A stretch of 64,000 bases of DNA from Escherichia coli (GTDB lineage: Bacteria > Pseudomonadota > Gammaproteobacteria > Enterobacterales > Enterobacteriaceae), in the NCBI RefSeq assembly GCF_050920415.1, contig NZ_CP169309.1. One strand, 5' to 3'. This document shows positions 32,451 through 38,100 of the stretch, piece after piece. The notes beneath the pieces were generated by a model, which searched no databases, was not told where the DNA came from, and saw only the letters and a program-made list of their open reading frames with translations. A program made the position numbers and the translations under genes. Numbering within the stretch: the first letter of the stretch is position 1; each line of letters opens with the position of its first letter.

Positions 32451-35063
32451 TCAAGCCAGTGCTTTAGTTATCTTCTCGTACAGATCTCCAGAGAGATTTT
32501 CCAGCCCTTTCAACTGCTCCAGCGCCGCGCGCATTTTCTCCTGACGTTTGGCATCGTAACGCTTCAGGCGAATCAGCGGTTCAATCAGACGTGAAGCCAC
32601 CTGCGGGTTACGGCTGTTGAGGTCGGTAAGCATTTCCACCAGGAACTGGTAACCGCTGCCATCTTCGGCATGGAACGCTGCCGGGTTGCTGCCCGCAAAT
32701 GCCCCAATCAACGAACGAATGCGGTTCGGGTTGCTCATGGTAAATGAGCGATGCTGCAACAGACCACGCACCGTCTCCAGCACATTTGCCGCCGGACTCG
32801 TGGCTTGCAGGATAAACCATTTATCCATCACCAGACCGTCCTGATGCCACTTGTCGTCGTACTCCTGCATCAGCGCGTCACGGCATGGCAGCTGTGCGGC
32901 AACCGCCGCAGAAAGCGCCGCCAGCGCATCGGTCATATTGTTTGCTTCATGGTACTGCTTGCTTACCAGCACGTCAGCCAGATGCGTTTCACCAAAAGCG
33001 AGGAAGCGCAGGCAGGCATTACGCAGAGTGCGTTTTGCAATATCTTCATGCTCAACGCGGTACTCGCTCTGATAATTTGCGTTATAAATAGCCAGCAGCT
33101 CATCCGCCAGTTCAGTCGCCAGAGTACGGGTAAGTGCTTCGCGTACTTCGGCAATAGCAATCGGGTCGATGATATCGAACAGTTCCGCCATTTCATTGAC
33201 GGATGGCAGCGTCAGAATTTCTGCCGCCAGTGCCGGGTCAATCTTCTCATCCAGCAGCACCGCGCGGAAAGCATCGGCAACGTGTGCGGGTAAAGACAAT
33301 GGTTGACCTTGCTGATGACGGGCGACGTTCAGTTTGATGTAGGTTGCCAGCAGGCTTTGTGCCGCATCCCAGCGGGAGAAATCATTACGCGCATGACGCA
33401 TCAGGAAGGTCAGTTGCTGATCGCTCCACTTATATTCCAGTTTCACTGGCGCAGAGAATTCACACAGCAGTGCGGGCACCGGCTGGAAGTAGACATTATC
33501 AAAGACAAAGGTCTGTTCCGCCTGGGTGACGTTCAGTACCGAATTCACCGGGTGACCGCCTTTCTGCAACGGGATCACTTTGCCTTCGTTGTCATACAGT
33601 TCAATGGCAAACGGAATATGCAGCGGCTGTTTTTCTGCCTGATCCGGCGTAGCAGGCGTGCGCTGGCTGATGGTCAGGGTGTACTGCTCGGTTTCCGGAT
33701 TATAGTCGTCTTTGACGGTCACAACCGGCGTACCGGACTGGCTGTACCAACGGCGGAAATGGGAGAGATCGACATTTGACGCATCTTCCATCGCCTGAAC
33801 AAAGTCGTCGCAGGTTGCCGCACTGCCATCATGGCGCTCGAAATAGAGCTGCATCCCTTTCTGGAAGTTTTCTTCGCCCAGCAGAGTGTGGATCATGCGA
33901 ATCACTTCCGCGCCCTTCTCATAAACGGTCAGGGTGTAGAAGTTGTTCATTTCAATAACCATATCCGGGCGGATCGGGTGCGCCATCGGGCTGGCGTCTT
34001 CCGCAAACTGCAATCCGCGCATGGTGCGCACGTTGTTGATACGGTTTACTGCGCGGGAACCAAGATCAGAGCTGAATTCCTGATCGCGGAAGACGGTTAA
34101 GCCTTCTTTCAGGCTGAGCTGGAACCAGTCGCGGCAGGTCACACGGTTACCGGTCCAGTTATGGAAATATTCATGACCAATAACGCGCTCAATATCGAGA
34201 TAATCTTTATCGGTCGCGGTATCGATGCGCGCCAGTACATACTTAGAGTTAAAGATGTTAAGACCTTTATTCTCCATTGCGCCCATATTGAAGAAATCCA
34301 CCGCGACTATCATATAGATGTCGAGGTCATACTCCAGACCGAAGCGTTCTTCATCCCACTTCATGGAATTTTTCAGCGAGGTCATCGCCCACGGTGCACG
34401 GTCGAGATTACCACGATCAACATACAGCTCTAGCGCCACTTCGCGACCAGAACGCGTGGTGAAGGTGTCGCGCAGTACATCAAAGTCACCTGCCACCAGC
34501 GCAAACAGGTAGCACGGTTTCGGGAACGGGTCCTGCCATTGTACCCAGTGGCGTCCGTTTTCCAGTTCGCCTTGCGCAACGCGGTTACCGTTGGAAAGCA
34601 GGAACGGGTATTTGGTTTTATCGGCAATAATTTTGGTGGTAAAACGCGCCAGCACGTCCGGGCGGTCGAGATAATACGTAATATGGCGGAAACCTTCGGC
34701 TTCACACTGGGTGCAAAGCGCATCGCCTGACTGATAAAGCCCTTCCAGCGCAGTATTCGCCGCTGGGCTAATTTCATTAACGATCTTGAGCGTAAAACGC
34801 TCCGGCAAATTACTGATGACCAGTGCGCCCTCTTCTTCTTTCCAGGCGGTCCACGGCTCATCATTAATATGAACAGAAACCAGTTTAAGATCTTCGCCAT
34901 CAAGACGAAGCGGAGCATCTGATGCACCATGACGGACAGCCTGGCTGACCGCGGTAACGACCGTCTTTTGCGCGTCCAGGTCAAAGGTCAAGTCAATATC
35001 AGTAATCTGGTAATCCGGCGCACGATAATCGTGACGGTATTTGGCTTGTGGCTGTTGAGTCAT
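32451..35063 (-). CDS. pepN: aminopeptidase N
   Basis: 870 aa with GAMEN and HEYFH zinc-binding motifs. Confidence 0.95.
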   Translation of the reverse strand: MTQQPQAKYRHDYRAPDYQITDIDLTFDLDAQKTVVTAVSQAVRHGASDAPLRLDGEDLKLVSVHINDEPWTAWKEEEGALVISNLPERFTLKIVNEISPAANTALEGLYQSGDALCTQCEAEGFRHITYYLDRPDVLARFTTKIIADKTKYPFLLSNGNRVAQGELENGRHWVQWQDPFPKPCYLFALVAGDFDVLRDTFTTRSGREVALELYVDRGNLDRAPWAMTSLKNSMKWDEERFGLEYDLDIYMIVAVDFFNMGAMENKGLNIFNSKYVLARIDTATDKDYLDIERVIGHEYFHNWTGNRVTCRDWFQLSLKEGLTVFRDQEFSSDLGSRAVNRINNVRTMRGLQFAEDASPMAHPIRPDMVIEMNNFYTLTVYEKGAEVIRMIHTLLGEENFQKGMQLYFERHDGSAATCDDFVQAMEDASNVDLSHFRRWYSQSGTPVVTVKDDYNPETEQYTLTISQRTPATPDQAEKQPLHIPFAIELYDNEGKVIPLQKGGHPVNSVLNVTQAEQTFVFDNVYFQPVPALLCEFSAPVKLEYKWSDQQLTFLMRHARNDFSRWDAAQSLLATYIKLNVARHQQGQPLSLPAHVADAFRAVLLDEKIDPALAAEILTLPSVNEMAELFDIIDPIAIAEVREALTRTLATELADELLAIYNANYQSEYRVEHEDIAKRTLRNACLRFLAFGETHLADVLVSKQYHEANNMTDALAALSAAVAAQLPCRDALMQEYDDKWHQDGLVMDKWFILQATSPAANVLETVRGLLQHRSFTMSNPNRIRSLIGAFAGSNPAAFHAEDGSGYQFLVEMLTDLNSRNPQVASRLIEPLIRLKRYDAKRQEKMRAALEQLKGLENLSGDLYEKITKALA

Positions 35064-35282
35064 AAATAACCTTTAGCATCTTTTATAGAGTCTGGTGTTC
35101 AGTCTATTCCTGTTGCGTAAATCGCGCTATGCAGAATCTTCATCTTTTCAGGTACAAACGCCTTTATTGCTACATTTTTATAACATACGCAGCGCAATAC
35201 CATCGACCAGAAAGGTGACATATGGTGTGATCGGGGTTCAATAAATTACGAAACAAGGTATACTCCAGCAGTTCCTGAAGAT

Positions 35283-35299
35283 GTTTATTGTACTAAACG
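35283..35299 (+). promoter_or_regulatory. NadR operator upstream of pncB
   Basis: tgtttattgtactaaac: TGTTTA-N6-TAAAC palindrome 30 bp upstream of the pncB ATG. Confidence 0.6.
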
Positions 35300-35328
35300 C
35301 TCCTGTACGAGGACGCTACTGCGCACCT

Positions 35329-36531
35329 ATGACACAATTCGCTTCTCCTGTTCTGCACTCGTTGCTGGATACAGATGCTTATAAGTTGCATATGCAGCAA
35401 GCCGTGTTTCATCACTATTACGATGTGCATGTCGCGGCGGAGTTTCGTTGCCGAGGTGACGATCTGCTGGGTATTTATGCCGATGCTATTCGTGAACAGG
35501 TTCAGGCGATGCAGCATCTGCGCCTGCAGGATGATGAATATCAATGGCTCTCAGCCCTGCCTTTCTTTAAAGCCGACTATCTTAACTGGCTACGCGAGTT
35601 CCGCTTTAACCCGGAACAAGTCACCGTGTCCAACGATAATGGCAAGCTGGATATTCGTTTAAGCGGCCCGTGGCGTGAAGTCATCCTCTGGGAAGTTCCT
35701 TTGCTGGCGGTTATCAGTGAAATGGTACATCGCTATCGCTCACCGCAGGCCGACGTTGCGCAAGCCCTCGACACGCTGGAAAGCAAATTAGTCGACTTCT
35801 CGGCATTAACCGCCGATCTTGATATGTCGCGCTTCCATCTGATGGATTTTGGCACCCGCCGCCGTTTTTCTCGCGAAGTACAAGAAACCATCGTTAAGCG
35901 TCTACAACAAGAATCCTGGTTCGTAGGCACCAGTAATTACGATCTGGCGCGTCGGCTTTCCCTCACGCCAATGGGAACACAAGCACACGAATGGTTCCAG
36001 GCACATCAGCAAATCAGCCCGGACCTTGCCAACAGCCAGCGAGCTGCACTTGCTGCCTGGCTGGAAGAATATCCTGACCAACTTGGCATTGCGTTAACCG
36101 ACTGTATTACCATGGATGCGTTCCTGCGAGATTTCGGCGTAGAATTTGCCAGCCGCTATCAGGGCCTGCGTCATGACTCTGGCGACCCGGTTGAATGGGG
36201 CGAAAAAGCCATTGCACATTATGAGAAGCTGGGAATTGATCCGCAGAGTAAAACGCTGGTTTTCTCTGACAATCTGGATTTACGCAAAGCGGTTGAGCTA
36301 TACCGGCACTTCTCCTCCCGTGTGCAATTAAGTTTTGGTATTGGGACTCGCCTGACCTGCGATATCCCCCAGGTAAAACCCCTGAATATTGTCATTAAGC
36401 TGGTGGAGTGTAACGGTAAACCGGTGGCGAAACTTTCTGACAGCCCTGGCAAAACTATCTGCCACGATAAAGCGTTTGTTCGGGCGCTGCGCAAAGCGTT
36501 CGACCTTCCGCATATTAAAAAAGCCAGTTAA
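35329..36531 (+). CDS. pncB: nicotinate phosphoribosyltransferase
   Basis: 400 aa from [24 protein letters not shown]...; ORF-track start at 35281 is an extension. Confidence 0.95.
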
Positions 36532-36699
36532 TATCATCAGGGAGCTAATCGGCTCCCTTTTTTTACCTTTAATTCCGAAATCTTTCGCTGCATTTGCGAA
36601 TTCTGCTTGTCTGATTGCAGATGCCAGGTAACATAGGTATCCCCCCATTTACGGGTGGACAAGTGTTTATTTTTTCCGACTATTAACAGAGAGAATATT

Positions 36700-38100
36700 A
36701 TGAGCGTTGTGCCTGTAGCCGACGTACTCCAGGGCCGCGTAGCCGTTGACAGCGAAGTCACCGTGCGCGGATGGGTACGTACCCGCCGAGATTCAAAAGC
36801 TGGCATCTCCTTCCTCGCCGTTTATGACGGTTCCTGCTTTGATCCTGTACAGGCTGTCATCAATAATTCTCTGCCCAATTACAATGAAGACGTTCTGCGT
36901 CTGACCACCGGTTGCTCGGTCATTGTGACGGGTAAAGTCGTGGCATCGCCAGGCCAGGGGCAACAATTTGAAATTCAGGCCAGCAAGGTTGAAGTTGCTG
37001 GTTGGGTTGAAGATCCAGACACTTACCCGATGGCGGCAAAACGCCACAGCATTGAGTATCTGCGTGAAGTCGCTCACCTGCGTCCGCGCACAAACCTGAT
37101 TGGTGCCGTCGCGCGCGTTCGCCATACGCTGGCGCAGGCGCTGCATCGCTTCTTTAACGAGCAGGGATTCTTCTGGGTTTCAACGCCACTGATTACTGCG
37201 TCTGATACCGAAGGGGCTGGCGAAATGTTCCGCGTTTCTACGCTGGATCTGGAAAACCTGCCGCGTAACGATCAGGGCAAAGTGGATTTCGACAAAGACT
37301 TCTTTGGTAAAGAGTCTTTCCTGACCGTATCTGGCCAGTTGAACGGTGAAACCTACGCTTGCGCATTGTCCAAAATTTATACCTTCGGCCCGACTTTCCG
37401 TGCTGAAAACTCCAACACCAGCCGTCACCTGGCGGAATTCTGGATGCTGGAGCCGGAAGTGGCGTTTGCTAACCTGAACGATATCGCGGGTCTGGCTGAA
37501 GCCATGCTGAAATATGTCTTCAAAGCGGTTCTCGAAGAACGCGCTGACGACATGAAATTCTTCGCTGAACGCGTAGATAAAGATGCCGTTTCACGTCTGG
37601 AACGCTTTATTGAGGCCGATTTCGCGCAGGTGGATTACACCGACGCAGTGACCATTCTCGAAAACTGCGGCAGGAAGTTTGAAAACCCGGTTTACTGGGG
37701 CGTCGATCTCTCTTCTGAGCATGAGCGTTATCTGGCAGAAGAACACTTTAAAGCACCGGTAGTGGTTAAAAACTATCCGAAAGATATTAAAGCGTTCTAT
37801 ATGCGCCTTAACGAAGACGGTAAAACCGTTGCGGCTATGGATGTTCTGGCTCCGGGCATCGGTGAAATCATTGGTGGTTCTCAGCGTGAAGAGCGTCTGG
37901 ACGTGCTGGACGAGCGTATGCTGGAAATGGGCCTGAATAAAGAAGATTACTGGTGGTATCGCGATCTGCGTCGCTACGGTACTGTTCCGCATTCCGGTTT
38001 CGGTCTTGGTTTTGAACGCCTGATTGCTTACGTAACTGGCGTGCAAAACGTGCGTGATGTGATTCCGTTCCCACGTACTCCGCGTAACGCCAGCTTCTAA
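36700..38100 (+). CDS. asnS: asparagine--tRNA ligase
   Basis: 466 aa from [14 protein letters not shown]...; class II aaRS features (FRAE, GGSQRE). Confidence 0.95.

Follow-up and report, generated by a model that had tools for sequence, protein, structure and literature searches.

NadR is a trifunctional protein whose operators are the closest described systems. In Salmonella and E. coli it represses nadB, nadA, pnuC, and pncB (PMC12421817). The operator consensus is the 18 bp sequence TGTTTA-N6-TAAACA, with NAD as co-repressor (PMC2330246, PMC2330245). DNA binding is favored by NAD and release by ATP (PMC12421817). NAD-dependent operator binding is credited to Penfound & Foster 1999 (PMC2330246), and EMSA has been shown for Salmonella nadB and nadA-pnuC (PMC12421817). 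For the repression of pncB by nadR, PMC12421817 cites Penfound & Foster 1999, Tritz & Chandler 1973, and Foster et al. 1987. Control of pncB by NadR extends to several enterobacteria: The regulog includes pncB in 6 of 11 Enterobacteriales genomes (PMC5343134 and its supplement).

The K-12 NadR protein has an HTH_3 domain at residues 7–59, followed by adenylyltransferase and kinase domains (CTP_transf_like, AAA_28). Its gene lies near 4.63 Mb in K-12, while pncB is found at 0.99 Mb. At the species level, nadR is present in 5424 of the 5426 complete E. coli genomes. The operator motif precedes both nadA and nadB in K-12. In nadA, the site is TGTTTAGCATATAAAACA, with one mismatch, 72 nt before the ATG (about 70–90 nt upstream). 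In nadB, a site without mismatches, TGTTTAGTAAATTAAACA, is found 6 nt before the ATG (7–24 nt upstream), and a second one with two mismatches, TGTTTAGCAACTGTAACA, 74 bp further upstream (81–98 nt before the ATG). Four exact TGTTTA half-sites are present in 92 bp of the nadB upstream sequence (523–614): They make up the two full sites, separated by 74 bp, and an orphan half-site at 558–563. Only 0.6 such hexamers are expected in 900 bp, and none of 200 shuffles reached four.

The pncB locus and its control region

The 64 kb stretch we have analyzed (the window) is a piece of E. coli chromosome which contains pepN, pncB, and asnS, in reversed orientation with respect to K-12. The 400 amino acid open reading frame which starts at the ATG in 35329 matches the NAPRTase family TIGR01514 in a profile search, with a score of 620 bits (cut-off 270), and matching E. 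coli genomes annotate the same locus as pncB and pepN. The name given to the gene in the original prediction is therefore right. The region between pepN and pncB which holds the operator is 265 bp long, and asnS also flanks pncB. The features of this region are collected in Table 1.

Table 1. Features of the pncB control region and neighboring genes, with positions in the window
Feature	Position	Strand	Basis
pepN, divergent from pncB	32451–35063	minus	
−35-like hexamer TTCAAT, 3/6 matches, 16 bp spacer	35237–35242	plus	Inferred: spacing to TATACT, conserved GGGGTTCAATAAA
GAAACA, possible auxiliary NadR half-site (speculative)	35250–35255	.	3 nt before the −10 box; most other genera have TAAACA
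Probable −10 hexamer TATACT (−12 to −7)	35259–35264	plus	Right distance from the mapped start site; conserved
Start of pncB transcription (G), with the ATG 58 nt downstream	35271	plus	Kim et al. 2012 (PMC3415461), mapped through the K-12 alignment
pncB 5' leader	35271–35328	plus	Mapped start site, alignment of genera
Probable NadR operator (NAD box) TGTTTATTGTACTAAACG, +12 to +29 of the pncB transcript	35282–35299	.	Sequence, uniqueness, conservation, published consensus
Left arm TGTTTA	35282–35287		Direct reading
Spacer TTGTAC	35288–35293		Direct reading
Right arm TAAACG	35294–35299		Direct reading
pncB coding sequence, nicotinate phosphoribosyltransferase, 400 aa; regulated gene	35329–36531	plus	Translation; TIGR01514; K-12 annotation of 1203 nt

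The palindrome TGTTTA-N6-TAAAC, which had been proposed as a NadR-type operator, is present when the sequence is read directly. The interval suggested for it, 35283–35299, ends correctly for the 18-mer, but the true start is one base to the left, at 35282. The proposed distance of 30 bp to the start of pncB is correct when counted from the end of TAAAC in 35298; it is 29 nt when counted from the full 18-mer. The site agrees with the published consensus in 11 of the 12 arm positions, and the sole mismatch is the last base of the right arm, G instead of A.

We have searched both strands of the window for the 18 bp consensus, allowing up to one mismatch. This site is the single match, while 0.12 are expected, and at least one match appears in 11 of 100 shuffled windows. 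The exact 17-mer pattern would be expected 0.01 times in 64 kb. Five more 18-mers in the window have two mismatches. By itself, the count of matches is only modestly unusual: The case for an operator is based on its conservation and on its location in the 265 bp intergenic region before a NAD salvage gene.

The position of the promoter has been taken from a published start site and from conservation, instead of from a consensus scan. In fact, a sigma-70 consensus scan of 35000–35400 with default thresholds does not call any promoter. The start site listed for K-12 pncB in supplementary file 2 of Kim et al. 2012 (PMC3415461) is 989637(−) in NC_000913.2, with 180 reads and a 58 nt 5' untranslated region. 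The sequence listed upstream of it ends in ...GGTATACTCCAGCAG / ...AAACAAGGTATACTCCAGCAG (PMC3415461). We have transferred this site to the window through a gap-free alignment with K-12; it falls in 35271, therefore the operator spans positions +12 to +29 of the transcript, with 17 nt between it and the −10 box. The TATACT hexamer is found in 80 of 81 pncB upstream sequences, and GGTATACTCC is common to most of them. To judge by its −35-like hexamer, the pncB promoter is probably weak.

The 3' part of the leader (AAACGCTCC...GAGGA.GC...GCGCACC) is kept even in genera which do not have the operator. The stretch from 35295 to 35331 (AAACGCTCCTGTACGAGGACGCTACTGCGCACCTATG) is conserved in all 80 species compared below, including those without operator. 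The only run similar to a Shine-Dalgarno sequence is GAGGA (35309–35313), 15 nt from the pncB ATG, an unusually large distance. Small hairpins in the leader (TCCT/AGGA, CGC/GCG) could bring this run effectively closer to the ATG.

The neighborhood also contains a weak match to the Rfam family RF02779 (PepN_thermometer). It is a full-length match in 35034–35161, minus strand, which falls exactly on the 5' region of pepN, but its score is 21 bits, far under the gathering threshold of 83 (E = 0.24), so it is probably not significant.

Conservation and origin of the operator

The operator is practically invariant in E. coli. The 401 bp around the site have a match in 5425 of 5426 complete genomes, and a 36-mer which includes the operator (35276–35311) is 100% identical in 5423 of these 5425. 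The surrounding 401 bp have just 95–99% identity to the window in 5409 genomes.

For a comparison between species, we have used the pncB loci from 80 species of Enterobacteriaceae. The sequence TGTTTA-N6-TAAACG, located 28–29 nt before the pncB ATG, is found in 54 of them, nearly always with the same spacer. They include species of Escherichia, Salmonella, Citrobacter, Enterobacter, Lelliottia, Kluyvera, Kosakonia, Phytobacter, Pluralibacter, and Pseudocitrobacter. The operator is absent in the other 26, among them Klebsiella, Raoultella, Trabulsiella, Atlantibacter, Franconibacter, Siccibacter, Mangrovibacter, Superficieibacter, and Pseudescherichia vulneris. This patchy distribution fits the 6 of 11 genomes in the published NadR regulog (PMC5343134). 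No half-decayed operator has been found before pncB among the 80 species: It is either intact or absent. The invariance of the arms is partly circular, as carriers were picked by the arm pattern, which does not affect the figures for the spacer and the flanks. In carriers, the identity to the window is 0.97 for the spacer, but drops to 0.56 in the 17 nt which separate the operator from the −10 box. Conservation of the right arm may be partly due to a function of the leader and not to NadR, since the adjoining leader is also highly conserved.

At the homologous stretch, species without operator read ...TTGATGGAAACGCTCC..., and the right arm TAAACG is a single substitution away from the putative ancestral GAAACG. 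The mismatched final G belongs to a block of the leader (GAAACGCTCC...) kept in every genus, including those which lack the operator. Since this G lies in a leader which is conserved without the operator, the alignment suggests that a few substitutions gave rise to the operator in situ, in an ancestor of the group formed by Escherichia, Salmonella, Citrobacter, Enterobacter, Kluyvera, and Kosakonia.

Two other sites upstream of pncB deserve a comment. Klebsiella, Raoultella, and Trabulsiella contain the sequence TGTTCAATATATTAAACT, with two mismatches to the NadR consensus, about 137 nt upstream. We have not counted it as an orthologous operator: It is homologous to the −35 region of E. coli (TTCAATAAAT...AAACA) and owes its distant position to an insertion of about 65 bp. 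This insertion is found between the ancestral TTCAATA...AAAC and TATACT, about 60–140 nt upstream of pncB, and supplies a new −35-like sequence, GGGACA, with a 17 bp spacer. No start site for Klebsiella pncB appears among the entries listed in the supplement of PMC3415461. The other case is Enterobacter sp. Ag1, whose upstream region is organized differently. The usual site at +12 to +29 is absent, and a perfect NadR consensus, TGTTTAGTACTCTAAACA, is found 179 nt upstream of the pncB ATG. This site may serve pncB from afar, or it may serve another neighboring gene.

Function of the palindrome

Very probably, the palindrome is the operator through which NadR acts on the pncB promoter of E. coli. 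The original prediction, which called it a NadR-type operator, is supported by the match to the consensus in 11 of 12 positions, the presence of the same motif before nadA and nadB (the comparison it had proposed as a check), a nadR gene with a helix-turn-helix domain in the species, a mapped promoter, the conservation of the site, and the literature on pncB. We have considered three other explanations.

Among them, the one which survives best, even if it is very unlikely, is that the site serves another regulator or the divergent pepN gene, its effect on pncB being incidental. A minor pepN start site (35279, minus strand), with 5 reads and a 216 nt untranslated region, is listed by Kim et al. 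(PMC3415461), and the palindrome falls within the 50 nt upstream of it, at about −4 to −21. Nevertheless, those 5 reads compare with 180 for pncB, pepN has no link to NAD metabolism, and the distance from the site to both the pncB ATG and the −10 box is fixed across genera. Furthermore, the motif is the NadR consensus, and to our knowledge it is not that of any other regulator. The minor pepN transcript begins within the leader of pncB, and as a side effect it could be silenced by NadR as well.

Even less probable is a role at the RNA level, as a hairpin in the 5' leader of pncB, which would act after transcription and not as a DNA operator. The site is within the mapped 5' untranslated region, at +12 to +29, and the minimum free energy fold pairs both arms. 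On the other hand, the stem would have only 5–6 pairs, rich in A and U, and the leader is not especially stable: Its energy is −10.7 kcal/mol, compared with a mean of −11.8 for shuffled sequences (z = +0.46), and 129 of 200 shuffles fold as well or better. No Rfam family matches the pncB leader, and invariant arms give no support from covariation. The motif is also found in other contexts, about 70–90 nt before the start codon in nadA and 7–24 and 81–98 nt before it in nadB.

Least probable of all is that the palindrome has no function, either as a chance match (one with up to one mismatch does appear in 11 of 100 window shuffles) or as part of a 416 amino acid pncB reading frame from the in-frame ATG at 35281 in the list of open reading frames: Chance is excluded by conservation within E. 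coli and between species, and the longer frame has the start site 10 nt upstream and no ribosome-binding site, disagrees with the 400 amino acids annotated in K-12, and is broken by a 1 nt indel, as the ATG lies 28 or 29 nt from the operator, depending on the genus. This longer frame is an artifact of open reading frame calling. The same applies to asnS, whose mechanically called frame (GTG start, 481 amino acids, 36655–38100, plus strand) has 15 codons more than the 466 amino acid protein of K-12.

Proposed mechanism and comparison with known systems

The function of the NadR operator may be outlined from the characterized NadR system. When NAD is plentiful, a NAD-loaded NadR dimer would bind both arms through its N-terminal helix-turn-helix domains. 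At +12 to +29, NadR would reach into the downstream end of the DNA covered by RNA polymerase, and could thus block open-complex formation or promoter escape, with less nicotinate salvage enzyme as a result. Repression is likely to occur by steric exclusion of the polymerase or by a block in promoter escape. When NAD falls, ATP-bound NadR would leave the DNA, and pncB would be derepressed along with nadA-pnuC and nadB.

Direct binding of NadR to the pncB site is a prediction which rests on secondary citations. The NAD-responsive repression of the salvage enzyme that was originally proposed agrees with the published NadR regulon (PMC12421817), for a site which is itself predicted, with the refinement that the effectors are NAD and ATP. 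Nicotinate would act indirectly, through a larger NAD pool.

The control region contains another sequence which resembles a NadR arm. TAAACA is found 2–3 nt upstream of TATACT in 50 of the 55 sequences which have the operator and in none of the 25 which lack it; Escherichia has GAAACA in this position. Such a distribution hints at three NadR half-sites instead of one dyad, an arrangement which we consider rather doubtful. A NadR oligomer bridging this half-site and the dyad at +12 to +29 would enclose the −10 box and the start site. If true, repression would be clamp-like or would involve looping, a mode which is not described in the NadR literature we have examined. The several half-sites of nadB would fit this picture. 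The joint presence of TAAACA and the operator may be due to a single ancestral event in one clade or to a constraint on the promoter spacer, and such a single inherited event may equally explain the hint of three half-sites.

In any case, the pncB operator is an ordinary textbook regulatory site, already known. Both the repression of pncB by NadR and the TGTTTA-N6-TAAACA operator have been familiar since the 1990s, and published reconstructions of the regulon already contain them. Vinitsky et al. are said to have pointed out, in 1991, that the promoter of Salmonella pncB contains TAAACAA as an inverted repeat, and Gerasimova & Gelfand reportedly catalogued a NadR site at pncB in a comparative genomics reconstruction in 2005. 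We infer that the operator described here is this catalogued site, with an identical 18-mer; a full-text search of the literature gave no occurrence of the exact 18-mer. This is a genuine regulatory site which can be recognized from the sequence alone, without new biology. Our additions are modest: its placement at +12 to +29, its distribution among species, its probable origin in place, and the candidate auxiliary half-site.

Other operators of this kind are clearly different. Those of NiaR, NrtR, and NadQ are likewise palindromes before pncB or nadABC which repress NAD synthesis or salvage, with effectors related to pyridine nucleotides (PMC2330245, PMC2330246, PMC5343134). Nevertheless, these regulators belong to unrelated families, with other motifs, other effectors (niacin, ADP-ribose), and other taxa, so none of them applies here. 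The NadR operators of nadA-pnuC and nadB in E. coli and Salmonella are much closer. As in pncB, they are 18 bp inverted repeats at a gene for NAD synthesis or salvage, and the nadA, nadB, and pncB operators share the same NadR protein with its helix-turn-helix domain and NAD as co-repressor (PMC2330246). There are some differences: The pncB spacer starts with T, while those of the nadA, nadB, and niaP sites start with G, and the final base of the arm is G in pncB but A in operators of the nadA-pnuC and nadB type. Furthermore, pncB has one full site, downstream of the start of transcription, compared with two full sites and four TGTTTA half-sites in nadB. The pncB site of the RegPrecise NadR regulog (PMC5343134) has the same gene, the same regulator, and the same patchy distribution among Enterobacterales.
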